From a bacterium (GTDB lineage: Bacteria; Actinomycetota; CALGFH01): 64,000 nucleotides of DNA. The notes under the pieces are model-generated. The model was not told the DNA's origin, ran no database searches, and saw only the letters and a program-made list of their open reading frames with translations. The first letter of the stretch is position 1; the number at the start of each line of letters is the position of its first letter. Of this stretch, positions 3,249 through 14,294 are shown piece by piece. Where the stretch lies: positions 22,198-86,197 of the forward strand of contig JBKPDO010000038.1 of assembly GCA_046727955.1 (NCBI GenBank), read 5' to 3'. The translations under genes were made by a program, and so were the position numbers.

Positions 3249-4880
3249 GTGACCGCCGCCACCCCCCTCCTCTCTGATCACTGGCGGTCGCTGCCCGGCC
3301 GGGCCGCGGGCGCCGCTCGGCGACACCGGCTCGTGCTTGCGCTTCTGGTGCTCGGGGTCGCGTTCCGGGTCCTGGTGCAGATCGCCTACCGGCCGCTGCT
3401 GCTGTACATCGACTCATATACCTACCTCGACAACCTGCACCGGCTCGACCCCACCGGTGAGAACCCGATCGGCTACAACCTGTTCCTGCTCCGCCCCGTG
3501 CTCGCGCTGGGAAACCTGGCGGTCCTCGCCGTGCTCCAGCACCTCATCGGCTTGGGCATGGGCGTCGCGATCTACGCACTGCTACTGCGGCGCGGCACCC
3601 GGCGCTGGGTCGCCGCCCTGGCCGCGGCGCCGGTGCTGCTGGACGCCTATCAGGTGCAGATCGAGCACAACCTGATGGCGGACACGCTGTTTCAGGCCAT
3701 GCTGCTGGCGGCGGTGGCGGTGCTGACCTGGCGGCGGACGCCTGGCTACGCCACCGCGGCCGTGGCCGGCGCGCTGCTCGGCGCGGCCGTGCTAGTCCGC
3801 CTTGTCGGCGAGCCGCTGGTGCTCCCGGCGATCGCCTACGTCGTGCTGGTCTCCTCCGGCGGCTGGCGCCGCGTGAGGCTCGCCGCCACCGTGGCCGTCT
3901 GCTTTGCGGCGCCGGTGCTCGCCTACGCCGCCGACTACCAGCACCATACTGGCAAGCTCGGCATCTCCAATACCGGAGGGGCCGCGATGTACGGCCGGGT
4001 CGCGGCGTTCGTAGACTGCTACGATCTCCCACTGCCCGCGTATGAACGTGCCCTCTGCCCGGCCGCGCCCGTCGGCGAACGAGCAAAGGCCGACGATCTG
4101 GTCAACGCTCCGGAATCGCCGCGACGGCAGGTGCAGCCGCCGCCGGGCAAGAGCGCCGCGCAGGTCGAGCGCGACTTCGCCCGGCGTGCCATCGCGCACC
4201 AGCCCCTCGACTATCTGGCGGCGGTGAGCCGCGACTTCGCCAAGGGCTTCGCCCCGACCCGCGTCACCTTCCCAGGCGACGTCCACGTGGACCGCTGGTG
4301 GTTCCCGTTGCAGTACCCGGTCTGGGGTCCCAGGTACAGCCTGCACGACGCGGTCGTGGCGGTCGAGCGCTACGGCGGCGGCGGTCCAGCGGTGCAACGC
4401 CCGCTCGCCGAGGTCCTCCAGGGCTTCCAGCGGAGTGTGGGCTACACGCCCGGTCCGGCCCTCGCGCTCGCGCTGCTCCTTGGGCTTCTAGCCGCGCTCG
4501 GCGCGGGCCGGACCGCGGACCGCCAGCAGCGCGCCGCGTGCCTGCTCTACACGACCACGGGCGCGGGGGTACTGCTGACCGCCGCGCTGTACCAGTTCTC
4601 CTGGCGCTACCAGCTCCCAGGTCTGGTGCTGCTGCCATTGGCGGGCGCCCTCGGAGCGACGGTCCTGGTCCCGTTACATCGGCCCCGTTGCATCAAGACT
4701 GGGACGAGCGTCGTACCGGGCGAACGCCGGCGCGGCGAGCGCGAGCAGCAGGACGCCTGCCATGCAGGCGAGCCCGCCGGACACGACCGCCACGTTCGGA
4801 CCGAACGCCGCCGCCACCGCGCCAGCCTCCAGGTCGCCGAGCCGCGGCCCACCCGCCCCGACGATCATGTTCACTCCTGA
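3249..4880 (+). CDS. GT39/ArnT-PMT-like membrane glycosyltransferase (GT-C fold, polytopic)
   Basis: Multiple TM segments. The N-terminal region is typical of the PMT/ArnT family (YIDSYTYLD...LGMGVAIYAL). Its 3' end reads about 200 bp through the convergent MFS gene, so the C-terminal tail or stop may be wrong. Confidence 0.6.
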   Translation: MTAATPLLSDHWRSLPGRAAGAARRHRLVLALLVLGVAFRVLVQIAYRPLLLYIDSYTYLDNLHRLDPTGENPIGYNLFLLRPVLALGNLAVLAVLQHLIGLGMGVAIYALLLRRGTRRWVAALAAAPVLLDAYQVQIEHNLMADTLFQAMLLAAVAVLTWRRTPGYATAAVAGALLGAAVLVRLVGEPLVLPAIAYVVLVSSGGWRRVRLAATVAVCFAAPVLAYAADYQHHTGKLGISNTGGAAMYGRVAAFVDCYDLPLPAYERALCPAAPVGERAKADDLVNAPESPRRQVQPPPGKSAAQVERDFARRAIAHQPLDYLAAVSRDFAKGFAPTRVTFPGDVHVDRWWFPLQYPVWGPRYSLHDAVVAVERYGGGGPAVQRPLAEVLQGFQRSVGYTPGPALALALLLGLLAALGAGRTADRQQRAACLLYTTTGAGVLLTAALYQFSWRYQLPGLVLLPLAGALGATVLVPLHRPRCIKTGTSVVPGERRRGEREQQDACHAGEPAGHDRHVRTERRRHRASLQVAEPRPTRPDDHVHS

Positions 4881-5999
4881 CAGGCGGCCCCGCATCGCAT
4901 CCGGCGTGACGAGCTGCAGGATGGACGAGCGGAACACCACACTGATGGCGTCGGCCGCGCCGGCCAGAGCGAGCAGGACAAGCGCCAGCCACAGCACCCG
5001 CACTAGACCGAACACGGTGATCGCCGCACCCCAGCCGGCGACCGCGACCAGCACTGCCCGGCCCTGGCGGCGGACGGCCGGCAGCCACCCGCTGAGCAGC
5101 GACGCAAGCAGCGCGCCGGCCGCGGGAGCGGCATAGAGGTAGCCGGCGACCTGCGGGCCACCGTGAAACTGCCCGGCGGCCATGGCCGGGAAGAGGGCGC
5201 GCGGCATGCCGAATACCATCGCGTTGACGTCGGCGAGGAAGACCGTGAGGAGCACCGGCCGCGAACGCAGGAACGCCAGGCCCTCCATGACCGACGACAG
5301 CCCGGCGCGCCGGCCGCCGCCCTCTGGCGACAGCGGCGGCAGCTGGTAGATCGCGGAGATCGCGACGGCGAACGCGCCGACGTCGACAGCATAGGCCGCG
5401 GCGTACCCGCTGGTGCTGATCAGCACGCCCGCGACCAGCGGACCGACGACGATACCGAGGGTGAATACGCCGTGAAACAAGGTGTTGGCGGCGGGGATGT
5501 GGGCCGGACCGACCAGTCGTGGCAGCAATGCCCGGCGGGTCGGCGAGTCGACCGCGGAGAAGGCGGCCTGCACGGCGACGCAGGCGTAGAGAAGCCAGAG
5601 CCGGTCGAGGTGCAGCAGCGCCTGCACCAGCAGCAGCACGCTGACCGCCGCGGATCCGGTCGAGGTCACCAGGATCAGCCGGCGCCGGTCGACGGCGTCG
5701 GCGATGGCGCCACCGTACAGCCCGAAGACGATGAGCGGCACCAGCGCAGCGAACCCGATGAAGCCGACCGCAAGACTGGACCTGGTCAGCGCGAAGACCT
5801 GTAACGGCACGGCGACCAGGGTCACCTGGGCGCCGACCATGGAGGCGCTCTGCCCGATGAAGAGCCGCCGGAAGCCGCCCGAGCTGCGCAACGGCGTCAG
5901 GTCCGTGACCAGCCGGCGACCTGTCACGGCGCCCACTTCTCGCCACCGGCCGGGCCAGCGTCTGATGTCCGACATCCGCTGATCTAACACCACCTCCAT
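4674..5999 (-). CDS. MFS transporter (EntS/MFS_3-like)
   Basis: 12-TM profile. The MFS N-terminal signature FRRLFIGQSASMVGAQV is present. Confidence 0.8.
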   Translation of the reverse strand: MEVVLDQRMSDIRRWPGRWREVGAVTGRRLVTDLTPLRSSGGFRRLFIGQSASMVGAQVTLVAVPLQVFALTRSSLAVGFIGFAALVPLIVFGLYGGAIADAVDRRRLILVTSTGSAAVSVLLLVQALLHLDRLWLLYACVAVQAAFSAVDSPTRRALLPRLVGPAHIPAANTLFHGVFTLGIVVGPLVAGVLISTSGYAAAYAVDVGAFAVAISAIYQLPPLSPEGGGRRAGLSSVMEGLAFLRSRPVLLTVFLADVNAMVFGMPRALFPAMAAGQFHGGPQVAGYLYAAPAAGALLASLLSGWLPAVRRQGRAVLVAVAGWGAAITVFGLVRVLWLALVLLALAGAADAISVVFRSSILQLVTPDAMRGRLSGVNMIVGAGGPRLGDLEAGAVAAAFGPNVAVVSGGLACMAGVLLLALAAPAFARYDARPSLDATGPM

Positions 6000-6072
6000 C
6001 CGGCAAGGCGCCTCCCGCGAGATGCCCCTGCGAGGCGGTCACGTGCGGATCTGCGGCGTTTCGGCCCTCATC

Positions 6073-6290
6073 CTTGCCGCGTGGGCTGCACGTTGCCGCG
6101 CACATCGTCGGTCAGAAGCCCTAAAGCGGATGCCGAAGCAACCATCTACGCGGCAACCTGCATCCCACGCGGCAAAGTCAGGCGCCAAAGGTGCCCGGCG
6201 CGCGGCAAGATGCACCCTACGCGGCAAGGTAAGGTGCCGGCCCCGCGGCAACCTGCACCCACAGCGGCAAGGTGGCTCAGAACGGGCGTC
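6073..6290. promoter_or_regulatory. Repeat array upstream of the eis-like gene. One inverted unit (cttgccgcgtgggctgcacgttgccgcg) is followed by three imperfect direct units of about 45 bp, each holding two GCGGCAA(g/c) half-sites with tgcaYccc.
   Basis: Direct reading of the sequence. Units begin near 6148, 6199 and 6244. The inverted copy lies at 6073-6100. Confidence 0.6.
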
Positions 6291-6336: not shown

Positions 6337-7566
6337 ATGGACATCGAGATCCGCCCGATAGGGCCCGACCACTTCCCGCAGTTCTCGCGGGTGCTCGACA
6401 TCGCCTTCGGCGCGGACACCAGCGAGGAAAAGCTCGCCGACGTGCAGCGTAGCCTCGAGTACGACCGCAGCATCGCCGCGTTCGACGGCGACCGGATCGT
6501 GGCGACAGGCGGCGCCGACTCCATGGAGCTGACCCTGCCCGGCCTGACCGCGATCCCGATCGGCGGCCTGACCGCGATCGCCGTCCTGCCGACCTACCGG
6601 CGCCGGGGGATCCTGCGGTCGATCATCGCCAGGCACTTCGAGGACGTCGAGGGGCGGGCCGAGCCCGTGTCGGCGCTGATGGCCTCCGAGTCGACCATCT
6701 ACGGCCGTTTCGGCTACGGCGCGGCCACCATGGCGGCTGAGCTGGAGATCAACACCGACAATGCCGTCTTGCTGCAGCCCCCGGACACGACCGGCCGGCT
6801 GCGCCTGCTCGACAAGGATGAGCGCGCCGCGGTGGTTCGCCCGTTCTACGACCGCGTCCGCAAGGCCCAGCCAGGTGAGCTGTCCCGGATCGACTGGTGG
6901 TGGGAGATGTTCGCCAGCGACCCCAGCTGGCGATTCCAGGGCGACAGCCAGCGCCAGGACGTGGTCTACGAGTCGGAGCCGGGCCGGGTCGACGGCTGGC
7001 TCAGCTACCGGGTCAAGCACGACTGGGAGCACGGGCTTCCCAACAACCTGATCAACGTGTTCCAGCTCTTCGCGCTCACCCCCGAGGCCGGCGGGGCTCT
7101 GTGGGGCTACTGCCTCGACCTCGACCTGGCCGGGACGGTTCGGCTGTTCAGCCGGCCGGTCGACGACCCGCTGCGCTTGTGCCTGGCCGACCCGCGCCGG
7201 CTCCGCACGGTCGGGGTCGCCGATCATCTCTGGATCCGGCTGATCGACCTGCCGGCGGCCATGGAGGCGCGCCGGTACGCGGCCGAGGGGCGCCTGGTGC
7301 TGGAGGTGACCGACGCCGTGCGACCCGGCAACCAGGGCCGCTGGTTGCTGGAGGGGGGCCCGGACGGCGCGAGCTGCCAGCGCACCCGGGACGAGGCCGA
7401 CCTGGCACTCGACGTGGCCGAGCTCGGCGCCGCCTATCTCGGCGGCACCCGGCTGGCGACCTTGGGCCGGGCCGGCCGGGTCCGCGAGGAGGTCCCCGGC
7501 GCTCTGGTGCGGGCCGACGCCATGCTCGCCAGCGACCCGCCGGCCTGGTGCACCACCCACTTCTGA
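6337..7566 (+). CDS. eis: Eis-family GNAT N-acetyltransferase (aminoglycoside acetyltransferase Eis-like, with sterol-carrier-like C-terminal domain)
   Basis: ATG at 6337 is in frame with ORF 6022..7566. Motifs AVLPTYRRRGILR and ESTIYGRFGYG match mycobacterial Eis, and the C-terminal LIDLPAAMEARRY...LEV region also matches. Confidence 0.8.
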   Translation: MDIEIRPIGPDHFPQFSRVLDIAFGADTSEEKLADVQRSLEYDRSIAAFDGDRIVATGGADSMELTLPGLTAIPIGGLTAIAVLPTYRRRGILRSIIARHFEDVEGRAEPVSALMASESTIYGRFGYGAATMAAELEINTDNAVLLQPPDTTGRLRLLDKDERAAVVRPFYDRVRKAQPGELSRIDWWWEMFASDPSWRFQGDSQRQDVVYESEPGRVDGWLSYRVKHDWEHGLPNNLINVFQLFALTPEAGGALWGYCLDLDLAGTVRLFSRPVDDPLRLCLADPRRLRTVGVADHLWIRLIDLPAAMEARRYAAEGRLVLEVTDAVRPGNQGRWLLEGGPDGASCQRTRDEADLALDVAELGAAYLGGTRLATLGRAGRVREEVPGALVRADAMLASDPPAWCTTHF

Positions 7567-7784
7567 TCCAGGGTGAAGGCGATCGGGTTCAGACCGTCCG
7601 CGAAGCGGGCGGCGCGCTCGATCCCCGCCGGCGTAAGCGAGCCCATGATGATCGGGATGCCTCCCTCCTGCCGCGGCTTGGGATTGACGATCGAGGCCGG
7701 GATGCGGAAATAGCGTCCCTCGAAGCTGACCGGGTCGGGAGAGGCAAAGGGCGCAGAGGTGGGCAGCGCGACGCCAAGATCCAT
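7557..7784 (-). pseudogene. Remnant of a luciferase-like monooxygenase (LLM/F420-dependent oxidoreductase class); only the C-terminal roughly 75 aa segment is present
   Basis: FEGRYFRIP...PKPRQEGGIPIIMGS...AARFADGLNP matches the LLM C-terminal region. The N-terminal two-thirds is absent, and the rest of the ORF is antisense to eis. Confidence 0.45.
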
Positions 7785-7968
7785 GGTCCCTCCTCGAGCG
7801 AGTCAGCTTGGCGAGTGCGATCAGGTTATCGGCGCGGCCTGCTCGCCGGCCCGCCCGCACGGTGAAGCTGCTGGCCGCCGACCTTATCAGCGCGGCTCGT
7901 GGCCGCGGGACTCAGACGGCTCGTCGTCGCTTGTCCCTCTGCCAGGCCAGGGCGCCTCACGTCATCGT

Positions 7969-9836
7969 CTACCTCTTCACCCATACCTGGTAGTAGCCGT
8001 CGCCGTAACTGGTCCGATAAGGCAGCTTCGCCAGCAGACGGTATTTGTCATTCGTCCGCAGTTGCCGGAGAAGCTTGTCGTCCAATTCCTTCGTCACTGT
8101 CCAGTTGAGCACGATGACATCGAAATAGGCCTCGCGAATCGCCGCCCGGTAGCCAGGCTCGCCCAAGAGTAGCCTGCCCTTTCGATCCGTGTAGTTGATG
8201 GCGTAGGTGGAGGTCCACTGGTCCGGTGTGGTCTCCGCACGAAGGTAGTATCTGGGCACCGGGTTGGACTCGACCAGGTAGCGTCCCCCTGGTTTGAGCT
8301 GCGACTTGAGCGTGGCGACCATGCGCGTGGAGTCATCCCAGGCATGGTAAAGGTACTGGGATTGGGTGATTCCCAGCGTCAGCAGCGTCACCCAGGCGAG
8401 GATGGCCAGCTGGGGGTACCGGAAATGCGCCCCCATTATCCGACTCAGGCCGACGCCGGCCATGGGAGCCGTGAACAGCAAGCCGTAACCGACGTGCTTG
8501 TGCAGCGACACGCCGGTGTGCAGGTACACCTGGTACGCCGGCGCGAGCAGGGCGGTGCCACACAACAGCAGGCCGAGGGCCAGTCGCCACGGCCGACCAC
8601 GATTCCCATCTCGCCTCATGCGCGGCACCTCGCCCATGCGTTCCCGCCGGACATAGCACACCGTGCCCAACAGCGCGAGAGCGAGCAAGCCCCCACCACA
8701 CTCCAGGCAGTCGAGGAGCAGATCCAGGGGATCTGCGTTGCCAACGGCTCGGGCCGTGGTGGTGACGCGCACGGCGTGGAGATAATCGTCCCCGGCTAGC
8801 GCCAGCGCCCCGGCGAGCGTGGCTGCGGTGAAAGCGGGCAGCAAGATGCCACGCAGCACCAACCCTCCCCACCTGCGGTGCGGGAAGGTGGCCAGCGCGG
8901 CGAGCACGGCTACGGTGGGAAGAAACATGAGAGCGGCGTACTTCACCGCCACCGCGAGCGCCATCACCGGTGCAGCGAGAAGGCACGCCGGGATAGCCAA
9001 GTTGTGAGCGGTACGGACCACGATCCAGGCGGCAAGTGCGAGCAGGAAGATCGTCGCTGCGTCGTAGGTGGCGAAGTTGCCCAGAAACAGGGTGGACTGA
9101 GTGGTGGCGAAGACGGCAGCCGCGCACAAGCCTGCCCGTTCGTTGAACAGCAACCGCGACAGTGAGTAGAGCAGGGCCGTGGCCCCGAGCATGAAGACGA
9201 GGCTCAAGGCACGCGCCGCGGTGAGGCCGAAGGCCGACTCGACTGCGGCGGCAAGCACCGGGTAAAGACCGGCGAGCCAGAAAAGTACGCGGTGAACTCT
9301 GGCGGGACAGGCCTTCCGTAGTGGAAGTGGTCCAGTTGGAGGTGGCCGACGTAGAGATACAGGGCCTCGTCCTCGAACGCGGTGTTCTGCAGCCGGAGAG
9401 ACAGCACGGCCTGCACGACGAGGATGCCGAGCAGGACCGCTCGACTTACCCGAGTGCGGCGGCGGCTCGGCGCGGCTGTCCAGCCGGATTGGGGGACGGA
9501 AGGCACGCTGTAGCCCGGCGTCCGCTGCCTTGGGGTGGCGACGGGGGCGGCCCGGTGCATGGGAGGAGTGGGATGGCCTCGCCCGCGCTGGCCGGGCGGA
9601 CCGTTGCGCTCAAAGCCTGTCCTTGTCTGATTCTCGTCCCAGGACCACGGGTTCGCGGGTGGCGGTTCAGTGGCAGACGGAGGAACGGTGGCACGCCCAT
9701 CCTGATCCCAGGGAAGATACTCGCCGCCGGGACCGATCTCGACGGCGGGGGGTCTAGGGACATTCGTTTCGCCACCGCCATTTCGCTGAGCGGCGATGCG
9801 GCCACCGCCAGGTCGGATTTCTCTCTCAGAGGCCAT
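7969..9836 (-). pseudogene. GT39/ArnT-PMT-like membrane glycosyltransferase with a long Pro-rich N-terminal extension, interrupted by a 1-bp frameshift near 9245-9260
   Basis: N-terminal ORF 9204..9836 (...LLGILVVQAVLSLRLQNTAFEDEALYLYVGHLQLDH...FSGSP) continues in another frame as ORF 7969..9258 (GLYPVLAAAVESAFGL...). It could be a true pseudogene or an indel error. Confidence 0.6.
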
Positions 9837-10882
9837 CAGAGATGCTTCACGTCGAAGCCGAAGAGATCGTTCTCGGCTCTTCGCTTGAACTCGGCGAGTG
9901 CCGATGGATCGCTGTCGATGCGCCAGTCGGCGCGCTTGACGTAGTCGAACCAGATAAAGCCGATGACATCATGCGACGCAGCAACGCCCGCGAAGAGATC
10001 AGCGACGTCCTTGCGCTTCCGCGGCCCCGGCTCCGAGGCCGTCTCGAGGATGAGGATGGGCTTGCGGGCGAACTTGCGCACCGCAGCCGTCGTTGGACCG
10101 AAGAGCGTCGGGAACGTGCTGGCTCCCCTGCCCGTGTAGTAGCCGATCACGCCGATCCAGTCCACGTACGAGTCGCCAGGATAGAACGGCTTGAGCGGGA
10201 CCTGGGGCACTGGGTTGATGACGTTGGGGCTCCACACCCAGATCACGTTGGTTGCCCCGACGTCGAGAAAGATGTCGTGGATTCGCCGCCATGCGCGCAC
10301 GAAGTCAACCGGGGTTGTCGCTGTGGTTCCCCAGGGGTACCAGTGTCCGTTCATCTCGTGTCCGAAGCTGATGGCCACCGGCAGGTTGAGAGTCCGCACG
10401 GCGGTGGCGAACTTCCTGGTGTAATCGTCAGTCGCGCCGTCAGCGATATCCGCGATGGAGGGTTTGAACGGCTCCCACACCATTACGGGCAGGGCGCCTG
10501 CGGCTCGCGCATTTCTGACCCCCTGGGCGTCAAACTGGTCGCCCCACGCGGTGTAATACTCGAGCAGGTTGGGTTGCTTGCCAATCTTCCCCGCAAAGTC
10601 CCCCACCGGGCCAAGGGACTGGGGAGCGCCGCCGAGGGCGGCGCCGAGGTACTTGCGAGGGGGCTTGAGCAGCGGACGCACGTCGAAGGGGACAAACGCC
10701 TCTTCTGACTGCCCCTCCACTGAACCACCGGCGTCCGTTGCACCCTTCGACCGATGATCCATCGGTCCCGAAGAGCACCCGAGGAACGAGCCGAGCAGCC
10801 CTGCAAGCAGTAGCCCGACGATAGGCCGGGGTATCCTCTTGGCGCGGGCCGCCCAGAGAGCACCAAGACGGCTCGTCCTCAT
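9836..10882 (-). CDS. Glycoside hydrolase family 26 (beta-mannanase/endo-beta-glycanase-like) lipoprotein
   Basis: The GH26 catalytic motif FGHEMNGHWYPWG is present. The lipoprotein signal ends in the lipobox LGC. Its start overlaps the upstream GT2 stop (ATGA), and its stop overlaps the downstream GT39-like start (TGATG). Confidence 0.75.
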   Translation of the reverse strand: MRTSRLGALWAARAKRIPRPIVGLLLAGLLGSFLGCSSGPMDHRSKGATDAGGSVEGQSEEAFVPFDVRPLLKPPRKYLGAALGGAPQSLGPVGDFAGKIGKQPNLLEYYTAWGDQFDAQGVRNARAAGALPVMVWEPFKPSIADIADGATDDYTRKFATAVRTLNLPVAISFGHEMNGHWYPWGTTATTPVDFVRAWRRIHDIFLDVGATNVIWVWSPNVINPVPQVPLKPFYPGDSYVDWIGVIGYYTGRGASTFPTLFGPTTAAVRKFARKPILILETASEPGPRKRKDVADLFAGVAASHDVIGFIWFDYVKRADWRIDSDPSALAEFKRRAENDLFGFDVKHL

Positions 10883-12563
10883 GCGACCTCCTCCTTGCGC
10901 GGCTGGACGAGGATGCGGCCGACGATCGCGGCATAGAAAAGTCCGGAGGAGAGCACGAGCGCATAATCCGGTGGGTCCATCGTCACCATCCGCCAGAGGG
11001 CTGCCCCTACCCACACAAGTGCCGTGGCGCCGCCCCAGACGGTGATGCCAGTCCAGAAGCGTCGGGCTTGGTCATTGTTCTTTCTCGCCGAGGAACCGGT
11101 CGGCCGCCACGCCATCTGCCTGCGACGAAGGCTGTCCCAGATGGCGAAGGTGTGGGCCCAGCCGTACATCATCCGGGTGGCCCACGCCTCCAGCCGGTAA
11201 GGGCACTTGTGCCACATCGGAAAGATCAGTGTCGTATAGACCAGGCTGGGGACGATCAGCGTCATGTTCTCGAGGCGCAGCGTCCCCGGCATTGCCAGCA
11301 GCAACGTGATGGGAATGAGCGGGCCCACAAAGGTGAACAGTGCCGTGTGGATGTAGTAGAAAAAGCCGGACAGATAGCACATGCGGGTCCGCAGCCTGAG
11401 CTTTGTCCTCCAGAACTTCTTGCTGCTCAGCAGGTTCATCGTGCCCGAGCACCAGCGGTACTGCTGGGTCTGGAAGGCGCTCACCGTGTCCGGGCATAGG
11501 CCCGTCGACAGCGTGATAGGCACGTAGCGGAGATCCCAGCCGAGGCGGCGCAGGTCAAAGCCCGTGTGCACGTCCTCGGAGTGCGCAATCAGTGTCGTGC
11601 CACCGTTCTGCCTGAGCGCGGCACGCCGGTAGATGGCGCAGCTACCTACGCAGATCGCACCGTCCCTGCGTTGTCGGGCCACCTGGACCGAGCGGTAGAA
11701 GAGCTCCTGCACCGCCCCGGCTCCGCGCTCGATCCAGCTCTGCTCGTCGAGCACCCGGAAGTACTGCGGGGACTGGACAATTGCAATCCTCCGATCGCTC
11801 TCCATGTACGGAAGCAGTTCGTCGAGCAGATCAGGGCGGGAGCGAAATCGGCGTCGAGGATGACGATGTACTCCCCTGAGGAGAAGTGGAACCCGTAGCG
11901 GAGGTTGCCGGCTTTCTTGAACCAGCCCCGGTTCGGGCGGCTGCCATACGCAAAACCGAAGTTGGCCGCCATGGCGGCGACCGCGCGACTACCCGCGTCG
12001 TCGAGGACGCGGGGCGTGACCACCCCTTGATAGTACTGCGCCATCCCGGCGACGTGAGTCCACGTATTGTGCAGCACTTCGAGAGGCTCACCGCACACCG
12101 GCAGGAAGACGTCGACCGTTGGGTACACGGCCGGGCGCCAAGACGACACCAGGCGCCTATGGGCACGCAGGTCGAAATCTCGGCTGAAAGCGTTGACTGA
12201 GAGCGAGATTAGATAGTACGAGATCGTGAAGAGCAGGAGCGGCAGGTATGCCCACATCCAGTGGGCGGAGTGCATGAGCCTGAGCTGGGCCAAGGTCAGG
12301 CAGGTGAAGCTGACGAGAGAGCAGCAGGTGAGCACCCACAGATGCCGCTCGATATAGGAGTACTTCTCCCGATCGTCCGGCGGCTGAGGCAGGAGCCCCG
12401 CGATGCTGGGCGCCGAGCGGTACGCAGCCCGCCTGCGGCTGTGGGTGGCAGTGGTCCGAGTCCCCGCCCCGCGGTCGATGCTCGGACGCTGACGGACGCC
12501 GACACCGCTTGGGAGGGGAGCCGGCCGGGGTTGGAGGGGGGTCACAGCGGCGGATCTCCACAC
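10879..12563 (-). pseudogene. GT2 processive beta-glycan synthase (cellulose synthase BcsA/CslA-like; DxD, TED and QQYRW motifs), with a 1-bp frameshift near 11858
   Basis: ORF 11646..12563 carries DVFLPVCGEP and ILDADFAP then loses frame. ORF 10879..11805 resumes with PYMESDRRIAIVQSPQYF...EDVHTGF...QQYRWCSG. A single missing C in tcccgccctg restores a continuous protein. Confidence 0.7.
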
Positions 12564-12855
12564 GTAGAGGCAGTTACCGGGGCCCCGCGAAAGGCAGCAG
12601 GGAGGTGAGGCGACGCAAGCCTGTCATATCCCTCTTGAGCTAGCAAGAACGTCACTTCACTGAAGCTTCACCTATAGGACGGACAAGTATGATATTACGC
12701 AATCCGCCAGAAGCGAAAGCGGGCGCTCGTTGGATGGCCCAGTGCGACAGACAGCGAGGGTGCGTCTGTCGAACGGGTCGTGGTCTATGCTTGGGTTGCT
12801 AGCTGGGGTGTTCCCGGGCGGGCCAGATGCCGCCGCGGCTGCGCGCATCAGCTGG

Positions 12856-13317
12856 CTACAGGGCCGCGACCTGGTGCTCGCGTGGCCTTTCGGCGAGCAG
12901 GACCGGCGCCTGCAACACCTCGGCCCGCCGCTCCGGCGGGTCCGGGTCGGGCTCGGGCAGGGCGACGGCGCCCGCGCCGGCGAAAGGCCGTGGCCGTCGT
13001 GGTGCCGGCGCGCCCGCGCCTCCGCCGCGCCCGCGGTACACCAGCAAGCCGTTGACCGGGTCCGGGACCGCGTCCAGCGCGGCCCGCACGCTCGGCAGGA
13101 CGCGGAAGGCCTGCCACTGCTCCTCGTCGGCGAAGGCAACCTCGAATACCACGCCCCAGCGGTGCTCGTTCCAGACCCAGTCGACGGCGCCGTTGGAGAT
13201 CGCCGACTCGATCAGCGACGAGCTGTGAGCGTCCTTCCACCGCGCCGCCGAGAACGCCCCGTGAAATACCTCAATGGACCACCACTCCATGGTCCAACTG
13301 TAATCCGCCATCCTCAA
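12856..13317 (-). CDS. Hypothetical Trp-rich protein
   Basis: Minus-strand ORF (MRMADYSWTMEWWSIEVFHG...) has coding-like composition. The overlapping plus ORF looks antisense. No family is recognised. Confidence 0.4.
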   Translation of the reverse strand: MRMADYSWTMEWWSIEVFHGAFSAARWKDAHSSSLIESAISNGAVDWVWNEHRWGVVFEVAFADEEQWQAFRVLPSVRAALDAVPDPVNGLLVYRGRGGGAGAPAPRRPRPFAGAGAVALPEPDPDPPERRAEVLQAPVLLAERPREHQVAAL

Positions 13318-13376
13318 TCGCGGAACCGGCTCATTGCCTTTGACAGGGGTTTGGGGGAGTTCCTAGGCTGGCTGGC

Positions 13377-14294
13377 ATGACCGAGACGTCCCGCTCCAAG
13401 AGCTTGCCCGAGCTACGGCGCCACCGCCTCCACGGGCGCGAGATGGCGGTGCGGGTCGCCGGTGCGGGACCCGTAGTGGTGCTGCTTCACGGCATCATGG
13501 GCAACTCCGCCAACTGGGCCGGGGTGCTGCCGGCCCTGGCCGAGCAGGCGACAGTGGTCGCGCCCGACCTGCCCGGCCACGGCGCCTCCGCCCCGCTGCG
13601 GGGCGACTACTCCGTCCCCGCCTACGCCAACGCCGTCCGCGACCTGCTGGTCACGCTCGGCCACGATCGCGCCACCCTGGTCGGCCACTCGCTCGGCGGC
13701 GGTGTCGCCATGCAGTTCGCCTACCAGTTCCCGCAGCGCTGCGAACGGCTGGTCCTAGTCGACAGCGGCGGCCTGGGCAACCACGCGCCACTGGTGATGC
13801 GGGCGCTGGCGCTGCCGGGCGTCCACCACCTGCTCCCGCTCGCGTGCAACCGCGTCGCCTTCAGCGCGTCCAACCGGCTGGCCAGCTGGTGGCAGCGGCG
13901 CAATGGCGAGCCGTGGCCGCCGAGCCGGCTCGAGGATGCCTGGGCGGGCTACCGCACGCTGTGCCAGAGCGACGGTCGCCGGGTCGTCGCCGATACCATC
14001 CGCACGCTCATCGGGCCGTTCGGGCAGCGAGTGAGCGCGCTCGACCGGCTCTACCTGGCCGGCGGGCTCCCGGTGCTGATCGTGTGGGGTGCGCGGGACC
14101 CGGTCTTCCCGCTCGAGCACGGGCTGGCCGCCCACCGCGCCCTTCCCGGCAGCCGCCTCGAGGTCTTCGAGAACGTCGGTCACCGTCCCCAGTTGGAGGC
14201 CCCGGACCGCCTCGCGCAGGTGCTGCACGACTTCCTGCGCTCCACCGAGCCCGCCGCCTTCACCGAGCAGCGCTGGCGCGAGCTGTTCAGGTGA
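13377..14294 (+). CDS. Alpha/beta hydrolase fold protein
   Basis: The HGxxG oxyanion motif (VVLLHGIMGN) and the nucleophile elbow GHSLGG are present. Length is typical at 305 aa. Confidence 0.8.
   Translation: MTETSRSKSLPELRRHRLHGREMAVRVAGAGPVVVLLHGIMGNSANWAGVLPALAEQATVVAPDLPGHGASAPLRGDYSVPAYANAVRDLLVTLGHDRATLVGHSLGGGVAMQFAYQFPQRCERLVLVDSGGLGNHAPLVMRALALPGVHHLLPLACNRVAFSASNRLASWWQRRNGEPWPPSRLEDAWAGYRTLCQSDGRRVVADTIRTLIGPFGQRVSALDRLYLAGGLPVLIVWGARDPVFPLEHGLAAHRALPGSRLEVFENVGHRPQLEAPDRLAQVLHDFLRSTEPAAFTEQRWRELFR

Follow-up and report, generated by a model that had tools for sequence, protein, structure and literature searches.

A candidate mobile three-gene module for a synthase-dependent glycan in Actinomycetota, apparently decaying in one of its carriers

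What is a bacterium likely to build with a processive glycosyltransferase, a glycan hydrolase and a polytopic sugar transferase encoded back to back in a single 4.8-kb block? The question is raised by a 64,000-nucleotide stretch of contig JBKPDO010000038.1 (assembly GCA_046727955.1, positions 22,198 to 86,197) from a member of the actinomycetotal lineage CALGFH01, which is called the window below. Three minus-strand genes in this window encode a GT2 synthase, a GH26 lipoprotein and a membrane protein of the GT-C fold. With moderate confidence we read them as a mobile three-gene module for a synthase-dependent glycan, present here as a decaying copy; that the module operates as an exopolysaccharide system we infer from the sequences of its parts. 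The locus is laid out as follows.

7959..12739, minus strand: whole cassette (leader plus three genes), 4.8 kb, bounded by the limits of homology to close relatives with different flanks
12564..12739, minus strand: AT-rich leader or promoter region, conserved together with the cassette in three close relatives (L089-L091)
10879..12563, minus strand: gene of the GT2 processive synthase, BcsA-like, without PilZ; pseudogene in this strain
9836..10882, minus strand: gene of the GH26 lipoprotein, CtLic26A-like (lichenase) subgroup; intact
7969..9836, minus strand: gene of the GT-C protein (PMT_2/ArnT-like), polytopic; pseudogene in this strain
10879-10882, minus strand: ATGA stop/start overlap of the GT2 and GH26 genes, read directly as GTCGCATGAGG
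9834-9838, minus strand: TGATG stop/start overlap of the GH26 and GT-C genes, read directly as CTCTGATGGCC; kept in L089 and in a more distant relative, L092
10887-10896, minus strand: strong Shine-Dalgarno sequence AAGGAGGAGG, 4 nt ahead of the GH26 ATG

The chaining of the three genes by overlapping stop and start codons, proposed in a preliminary description made from the letters of this DNA, holds at both junctions, and the same 4-nt overlaps join the cluster genes of Streptomyces canus. Scanning GTDB with one genome for each species gave 488 confirmed relatives of the GH26 protein, and the 80 best loci were retrieved. In 79 of the 79 species loci with enough flanking sequence, GT2, GH26 and GT-C follow one another in this order on a single strand, so the arrangement is not unique to this assembly and the expectation of synteny in related actinomycetes is borne out. 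Its carriers include Streptomyces, Kitasatospora, Streptacidiphilus, Actinacidiphila, Sphaerisporangium, Spirillospora, Planotetraspora and uncultured Actinomycetota known from metagenome-assembled genomes (MAGs). None of the three proteins has an equivalog in NCBIfam.

What kind of synthase heads the module? With its reading frame repaired, the first protein matches the Pfam models Glyco_trans_2_3 (82.9 bits) and Glycos_transf_2 (58.2 bits) above their cut-offs, and it has the DxD, (T)ED and QQYRW motifs initially ascribed to it; VLDD, KKAGN, DADF, QSPQYF, SEDVH and QQYRW are invariant among 20 members of the family. The only PDB sequence matches of the repaired 561-aa protein are BcsA of Escherichia coli (113 bits) and of Rhodobacter sphaeroides (106 bits). 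An AlphaFold2 model of an intact homolog of 83% identity (P0242; predicted local distance difference test score, pLDDT, 73.3) shows two N-terminal and about five C-terminal helices around the GT domain, and a Foldseek search with this model returned BcsA as the best match (E = 8.5e-19), followed by CesA, hyaluronan synthase (HAS), CslF6 and chitin synthase. Motifs and modeled fold together point to a processive, membrane-integrated synthase with a BcsA/CesA/HAS-like channel architecture. The start of the gene is ambiguous: GTG at 12563 gives 561 aa, and GTG at 12545, which has GGAG ahead of it, gives 555 aa, the length called for the gene in related contigs. Contigs of the L089 group have one more C in an upstream C run, which opens the GT2 frame to an ATG and leads to calls of 583 aa.

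Does this synthase make plain cellulose, so that the module would be another CslA-like system and the GH26 protein its cognate endoglucanase? BcsA is its closest solved relative by sequence and by fold, JGI labels homologs cellulose synthase (UDP-forming), and the best PDB matches of the GH26 protein bear the name 'Endoglucanase H'. However, the protein scores only 158.5 bits against the CelA equivalog of NCBIfam (TIGR03030) and 124.8 bits against PRK11498, far below the respective cut-offs of 699.1 and 992; Pfam gave no PilZ match in the GT2 protein, neither of the other two genes of the cassette is BcsB-like, and GlxA is absent from the cassette as well. In addition, the gating-loop position reads W(Q/R)PTGS in 20 of 20 family members in place of FxVTxK, a motif reported to be fully conserved in BcsA, CrdS and BgsA (PMC6821405). 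Taken at the level of sequence, CelA score, missing PilZ and BcsB and altered gating loop mark the GT2 protein as other than a canonical cellulose synthase. Known cellulose systems, moreover, employ GH8, GH6 or GH5 hydrolases, and the 'Endoglucanase H' domain matched by the GH26 protein is, by the title of its reference, the lichenase CtLic26A and not a cellulase. We consider a beta-1,4-glucan a quite improbable product of this module.

The hydrolase itself carries the following sites.

10775-10777, minus strand: lipobox Cys36 (LLGSFLGC), after a hydrophobic segment of residues 21-39
10355-10357, minus strand: catalytic Glu176 (GHEMNG), invariant in 13 sequences and aligned to HEaNG of CtLic26A
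10043-10045, minus strand: catalytic Glu280 (ILETA), invariant in 13 sequences and aligned to AEfaS of CtLic26A

Its assignment to GH26 stands, with 55.2 bits to PF02156 against a cut-off of 20.2, the motif HEMNGHWYPWG and the two invariant catalytic glutamates. The N-terminus, MRTSRLG...LLAGLLGSFLG-C36, also confirms the lipobox; a lipobox-like motif ending in Cys (permissive pattern) is found in 80 of 81 orthologs, and a Ser/Gly-rich linker lies behind it, consistent with a predicted lipoprotein. The protein is 100% identical in four other contigs.

Which linkage would such an enzyme cut? A profile of the family matches 42 PDB sequences, nearly all of them GH26 enzymes. The GH26 domain of Clostridium thermocellum 'Endoglucanase H' (CelH) is matched over its full length (~250 residues, 156 bits, E = 7e-45), and this alignment takes in the C-terminal K..DWR region, whereas mannanase structures reach 30 to 50 bits over ~90 to 110 residues around the acid/base Glu. 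A beta-mannan or glucomannan as product, with the hydrolase acting as a beta-mannanase, would fit the fact that most characterized GH26 enzymes are mannanases and the JGI name 'mannan endo-1,4-beta-mannosidase'. Because mannanases are matched only around the acid/base Glu, this name is poorly founded; the synthase, too, is BcsA-like and not related to any known mannan synthase. We therefore hold the mannan reading to be very unlikely, and of the beta-mannan or mixed-linkage glycan first suggested for the locus, the mixed-linkage half is the better supported. A mixed-linkage beta-glucanase is the better lead for the enzyme. Since CtLic26A is its closest characterized GH26 relative, a beta-glucan that combines 1,3 with 1,4 linkages, or something closely derived from it, would be the most likely product, and on sequence grounds we favor such a glucan over mannan.

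What, then, does the third protein contribute? The GT-C protein matches PMT_2 (PF13231) with 36.3 bits against a cut-off of 26.1, and some homologs also match PMT (PF02366). Public names of the homologs vary among ArnT family, GT39 and PMT. Because a PDB sequence search gave no match at E <= 1, a predicted structure was used. The AlphaFold2 model of a 622-aa homolog of 83% identity (P0122; pLDDT 72.8, residues 1-122 disordered) consists of a bundle of 11 to 12 helices and a C-terminal extracytoplasmic alpha/beta domain. Foldseek ranks 1 to 35 obtained with it are almost all GT-C enzymes, with ALG12 on top (E = 5e-7), followed by STT3, ALG9, AglB, PglB, ArnT and AftA/B/D. The protein bears one acidic motif whose position and type would fit the catalytic acidic motif of GT-C enzymes.

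9366-9371, minus strand: D156-E157 motif (F-E-D156-E157-A-L-Y), directly after transmembrane helix 1, in the first extracytoplasmic loop

The motif is conserved among GT-C orthologs as F[QE]DEALYL. Fold, PMT_2 match and acidic motif thus uphold the description of a polytopic GT-C enzyme, and membership in GT39 specifically is not established. The Pro-rich N-terminus, put at about 190 aa in the preliminary description, is shorter: the disordered tail measures ~125 aa (18% Pro, 14% Gly, 11% Arg). Relatives of 94 to 96% identity have an in-frame 96-bp (32-codon) deletion corresponding to window positions 9566-9661 (about 9995-9999 in L089). The tail is variable in length, yet stays in frame with the coupled ATG.

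An enzyme of this kind could also act on other acceptors. It might be a Pmt-like protein O-glycosyltransferase working on the GH26 protein or on secreted proteins, or the module might glycosylate a lipid or a teichoic-acid-type acceptor, with no free exopolysaccharide at all. The PMT_2 assignment, the additional PMT matches of some homologs and the Ser/Gly-rich linker behind the GH26 lipobox would agree with this, and three-component GT2/GtrA/GT-C systems do glycosylate teichoic acids and O-antigens. But a strictly co-inherited, BcsA-like, channel-forming synthase and a glycanase would then be left unexplained, and the Pmt proteins are weak fold matches (Pmt4, E = 1e-2; Pmt1/2, 3e-2), behind ALG, STT3 and ArnT. 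Such glycosylation in place of a free exopolysaccharide seems highly improbable to us.

The loci of other species give further information on the GT-C protein. In S. canus, the operon continues with a second PMT_2 gene, a UDP-glucose 6-dehydrogenase gene (386 bits to TuaD), a gene for a 253-aa GT2 protein whose best matches are polyprenyl- or dolichyl-phosphate hexose transferases (AglJ, PpgS and ArnC-type models) and GtrA. A small GT2 gene of this polyprenyl-phosphate-hexose-transferase-like kind is present in 65/81 loci, GtrA in 28/81 and an extra PMT_2 gene in 29/81. The presence of donor-pathway genes in most Streptomyces loci suggests that the GT-C protein transfers a lipid-linked sugar outside the membrane. 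Thirteen loci, including most of those outside the Streptomycetaceae, are 'core only', and the window cassette is of the same kind: with the UDP-glucose dehydrogenase, small GT2, GtrA and PMT_2 proteins of S. canus as tblastn queries, nothing was found in the 64-kb window. Upstream of the Streptomyces cluster and divergent from it (L005 2232-8081, minus strand, in S. canus, and ~20 related loci) lie genes for a PF12708 beta-helix protein, pectate-lyase/rhamnogalacturonase-epimerase-like, and a 1447-aa ASH/Ig-repeat protein, two proteins that may also belong to the system. In S. canus, truA and rplM-rpsI-glmM border the entire region.

The dehydrogenase opens another route. Directly downstream of the core in 63 of 81 loci, it might supply the synthase and not the GT-C enzyme, in which case the product would be an alternating polymer containing glucuronic acid, like the cellubiuronic acid of pneumococcal type 3 or hyaluronan. 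Hyaluronan synthases are among the fold matches of the GT2 protein, and its W-x-P-T-G-S loop has more in common with loops of the WGT(R/K) type, as in hyaluronan and chitin synthases, than with FxVTxK. Several observations speak against such a product: the dehydrogenase is absent from the 64 kb of the window and from the other core-only cassettes; where present, it nearly always accompanies the small polyprenyl-phosphate transferase-like GT2 gene, a pairing that fits a lipid-linked donor route; and the synthase is nearer to BcsA than to hyaluronan synthase in both sequence and fold. We judge a glucuronic-acid-containing polymer to be improbable, about on a par with cellulose.

Is the GT-C protein needed as a catalyst or in some other role? 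The core GT-C protein keeps the DE motif in 49/81 loci, and Asp is replaced in 32/81. A second PMT_2 gene accompanies 28 of the 32 Asp-lost loci versus 1 of the 49 DE-keeping loci (Fisher p = 2e-16, kinship ignored). In S. canus, the sole case in which the motif of the second copy was read, this copy carries the DE motif as RDEHATW. The pattern suggests that GT-C catalysis is needed and that the core GT-C protein is also kept for a noncatalytic role, presumably as membrane partner of the synthase. The Asp-lost subtype reads PQEAKF instead of QDEALY, has a 26-aa deletion in loop 1 and carries the extra PMT_2 gene immediately downstream, as in the following example.

S. canus (L005), 11005-12678 and 12675-14216: core GT-C gene and second PMT_2 gene of the Asp-lost subtype

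How would these parts work together? By its fold and motifs, the GT2 protein would polymerize a UDP-sugar into a beta-linked glycan and extrude it through its own transmembrane channel, working without a PilZ/cyclic di-GMP domain and without a BcsB partner. By analogy with BcsZ and CslZ, the lipid-anchored GH26 protein on the outer face of the membrane would trim or release the nascent chain. Judging from its genomic context, the GT-C protein would take sugar from a polyprenyl-phosphate donor on the outer face of the membrane and attach it to the polymer as a branch or other modification; a second, structural role as partner of the synthase is probable for it as well.

How did the cassette come to lie in this genome? 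Contigs L089 to L091, from other MAGs or samples, show 94 to 96% DNA identity to the window over 12739..7959 only (blastn), with unrelated flanks, and their three genes are all intact. Two further contigs (L092 and L093) show 86% identity over 12631..7930, and one of them has an integrase gene nearby.

L092 6312-7463, minus strand: phage-type integrase (PF00589), ~650 bp downstream of the 86%-identical cassette, with a helix-turn-helix protein after it

This neighbor suggests that the cassette is carried on an integrative element. Base composition sets the cassette apart as well: it is the lowest-GC 4.6-kb stretch of the window (0.649 versus a mean of 0.709, standard deviation 0.021), and G+C content at third codon positions (GC3) is 0.79 to 0.84 in its three genes versus 0.93 to 0.95 in the flanking genes. 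The unusually AT-rich region said to lie at 12564-12760 is real: with a GC content of 0.579, it ranks among the lowest 0.4% of 197-bp windows. GC3 of the S. canus cluster is host-like. Homology limited to the leader and three genes, unrelated flanks, low GC and GC3, and an integrase beside one copy all indicate that the cassette is mobile, and our reading is that the 4.8-kb block moves horizontally and reached this lineage relatively recently. At the two ends of the cassette, a search for repeats and att-like sites returned only short chance matches. On plasmids, only distant GH26 homologs (28 to 36%) were found, in Micrococcales, Deinococcus and Halococcus, and the one context inspected was uninformative.

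Some features of the leader and the flanks deserve mention. Within the leader, a scan for sigma-70-type consensus promoters gave 0 matches (0.4 expected) and Rfam at E <= 1 gave 0 matches, with no cyclic di-GMP or other riboswitch. The BldD box TNAC(N5)GTNA occurs three times in the window, always away from the locus and no more often than expected by chance; terminator-like hairpins are likewise not above chance, with none 3' of the GT-C stop, and neither the window nor the S. canus cluster contains TTA (bldA) codons. Near the 3' boundary lies a gene fragment.

7434-7784, minus strand: LLM monooxygenase fragment, 116 aa, covering PF00296 profile positions 141-218 of 314

The fragment lacks the N-terminal half of the protein, overlaps the 3' end of a convergent Eis-like acetyltransferase gene and lies ~175 bp from the cassette boundary; it probably represents what is left of a gene at a recombination scar. 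That insertion of the cassette split this gene is unsupported, since the other flank holds no LLM half. Farther away, at 4693-6105 (minus strand) and overlapping on the opposite strand (L001 14778-17634), two open reading frames of 470 and 543 aa have no Pfam match; at least one of them is probably spurious in this high-GC DNA.

Is the copy in the window still active? Three sites bear on this question.

11838-11840, minus strand: GT2 frameshift, CCC here versus CCCC in intact alleles, between the DADF motif and RPDLLDELLPYMESD
9267, minus strand: GT-C frameshift, C here versus CC in the intact allele (GGTCTTTAC versus GGTCCTTTAC)
9747..9752, minus strand: poly-C tract in the GT-C tail, length-polymorphic among near-identical contigs (C5, C6 or C7)

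Single-base frameshifts in both transferase genes had been noted before; both are real, at sites about 20 nt from the positions first given for them (11858 and 9245). One C inserted in the GT2 gene yields a 561-aa protein that matches its homologs end to end, and the repaired GT-C protein reads SGSPVLYPVLAAA, as in all orthologs. With one base deleted in each transferase gene, this copy is expected to be nonfunctional. Both deletions are common to the window, L001 (a JGI contig) and L002 (an NCBI MAG contig), which differ from one another by single-nucleotide polymorphisms (SNPs). Two contigs of 99.7 to 99.8% identity (L003 and L004) have the extra C in the GT2 gene, and L003 has it also in the GT-C gene; both contigs count as intact, as do L089 to L093 and all 80 genome loci. 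In the poly-C tract, the window agrees with L001 and L002 (C6); L003 has C7 and L004 has C5. C6 keeps the frame from the coupled ATG, and C7 in L003 leads to a premature stop in that frame.

Could both frameshifts be homopolymer artefacts of sequencing or assembly, with a locus that still works in this organism? Every indel that separates the near-identical contigs is in a run of C, the length of one tract ranges from C5 to C7, and the indel:SNP ratio inside the cassette is high (3:8 versus L003). Yet three assemblies with separate records have the same two deletions, only one indel sets the window apart from L001 over 20.9 kb, runs of C3 versus C4 or C versus CC are not a typical error context, and at least seven contigs encode a 429-aa truncated form of the GT-C protein. 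Mis-assembly is unlikely, given that the deletions are shared by assemblies that differ by SNPs and that indels against L001 are so rare; of the two options raised at first, an inactive or a mis-assembled locus, the inactive copy is favored, and we think an artefact unlikely. Compared with intact relatives, the ratio of nonsynonymous to synonymous substitution rates is 0.23 to 0.33 for all three genes, indicative of purifying selection. We read the frameshifts as a real and recent inactivation, in this population, of an otherwise selected cassette. Window positions 1-20881 differ from L001 by eight SNPs, and the 4.8-kb cassette, with 23% of the compared length, contains five of them (binomial p ~0.02), a hint of relaxed constraint or recombination. 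Programmed frameshifting or phase variation as a conserved mechanism was rejected, since the C3/C4 and C/CC sites are not slippery and the relative of 86% identity does not share the C5-C7 tract.

How firmly does the whole picture hold? Several points weigh against a mobile synthase-dependent glycan module that is decaying here. The homopolymer indels might, in principle, stem from systematic errors of sequencing. Replacement of FxVTxK by W(Q/R)PTGS places the synthase outside the known beta-glucan synthase clades, and its linkage and sugar specificity are not readable from sequence. The UDP-glucose dehydrogenase could feed the synthase itself and so lead to a polymer with glucuronic acid. The window cassette and the 13 core-only loci have no donor-pathway genes for the GT-C protein, and the correlation between DE motif and extra PMT_2 gene is uncorrected for phylogeny. 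Weighing these points, we still regard the mobile three-gene module as the probable reading. A bolder proposal, put forward tentatively and with more doubt than trust, is that the cluster represents an unrecognized class of exopolysaccharide machinery of the synthase-dependent type, with a BcsA-like enzyme exporting a mixed-linkage (1,3;1,4) beta-glucan or related glycan and the GT-C protein as both its obligatory membrane partner and an extracytoplasmic branching enzyme fed by polyprenyl-phosphate sugars, that it serves as a third hyphal surface-glycan system of Streptomyces next to CslA/GlxA and MatAB, and that it travels as a 4.8-kb mobile cassette.

Why would such a module matter? Surface glycans of Streptomyces control hyphal tip integrity, pellet formation and adhesion, and in the literature found, only two such systems have been studied, CslA/GlxA and MatAB. 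The present cluster is a candidate third one because it is conserved in many species, as its 488 confirmed relatives among GTDB species representatives attest. Decoration by a GT-C enzyme is not known to us for any synthase-dependent polymer; if true here, it would link two well-known logics of glycan assembly. The compact three-gene core with its own leader could easily be moved to a heterologous host, and mixed-linkage beta-glucans are of biotechnological interest (PMC13438883). No description of such a glucan from an actinomycete was met in the literature found. As the copy in the window is pseudogenized, the interest lies in the family and not in this strain, whose locus is a pointer rather than a working system.

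How does the module compare with systems already described? We found no description of the GT2-GH26-GT-C arrangement in full-text literature. The only GH26-containing exopolysaccharide cluster of an actinomycete found there is of the Wzx/Wzy type, from Actinoplanes (PMC13390465), and the CslA/GlxA literature found makes no mention of GH26. The cassette consists of GT2, GH26 and GT-C genes only, without GlxA or CslZ, and the same is true of S. canus; the view that this is not the described actinomycete arrangement is thereby upheld. With the BcsA-BcsB-BcsZ and CslA-GlxA-CslZ-LpmP systems the module shares a processive GT2 enzyme with D, DxD, ED, QxxRW, KAG and QxPQ motifs, whose best match by sequence and fold is BcsA, and a cognate extracytoplasmic glycanase in the same operon. 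Unlike them, it has no PilZ, BcsB, GlxA or lytic polysaccharide monooxygenase, its hydrolase is of family GH26 and not GH8 or GH6, and a GT-C protein is its invariant third partner; it also differs from Bcs in its W(Q/R)PTGS loop and in scoring far below the CelA equivalog cut-off.

Rhizobial BgsBA and RiGT2 of Romboutsia are PilZ-less, BcsA-like GT2 synthases of mixed-linkage beta-glucans that lack BcsB (PMC10374906; PMC5567048). The synthase of the cassette resembles them in lacking both PilZ and BcsB, and a lichenase-type hydrolase would fit a product like theirs. Judged by their descriptions, the module is set apart from BgsBA by the absence of the BgsB (membrane-fusion) partner and of FxVTxK, and neither system has a described cognate GH26 or GT-C protein. 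CtLic26A shares with the hydrolase the HE(M/A)NGxWYPW and (E)T/F-A-S catalytic motifs and the C-terminal K..DWR..P.AL region, but it is a secreted, cellulosomal, degradative enzyme, whereas the GH26 protein of the cassette is a predicted membrane-anchored lipoprotein in a biosynthetic operon.

Three-component systems for extracytoplasmic glycosylation include GtrA/GtrB/GtrC, CsbB-GtcA-YfhO, GacI-L and mycobacterial PpgS/Rv3779. The module resembles them in that 65 of 81 loci pair the GT-C protein with a polyprenyl-phosphate-hexose-transferase-like GT2 protein, often together with GtrA, whereas the window cassette has the GT-C protein only. Those systems decorate polymers of the Wzy, ABC or teichoic type, while the presumed acceptor here is synthase dependent. 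Set against all of these, the module is best described as an uncharacterized variant of synthase-dependent exopolysaccharide machinery.

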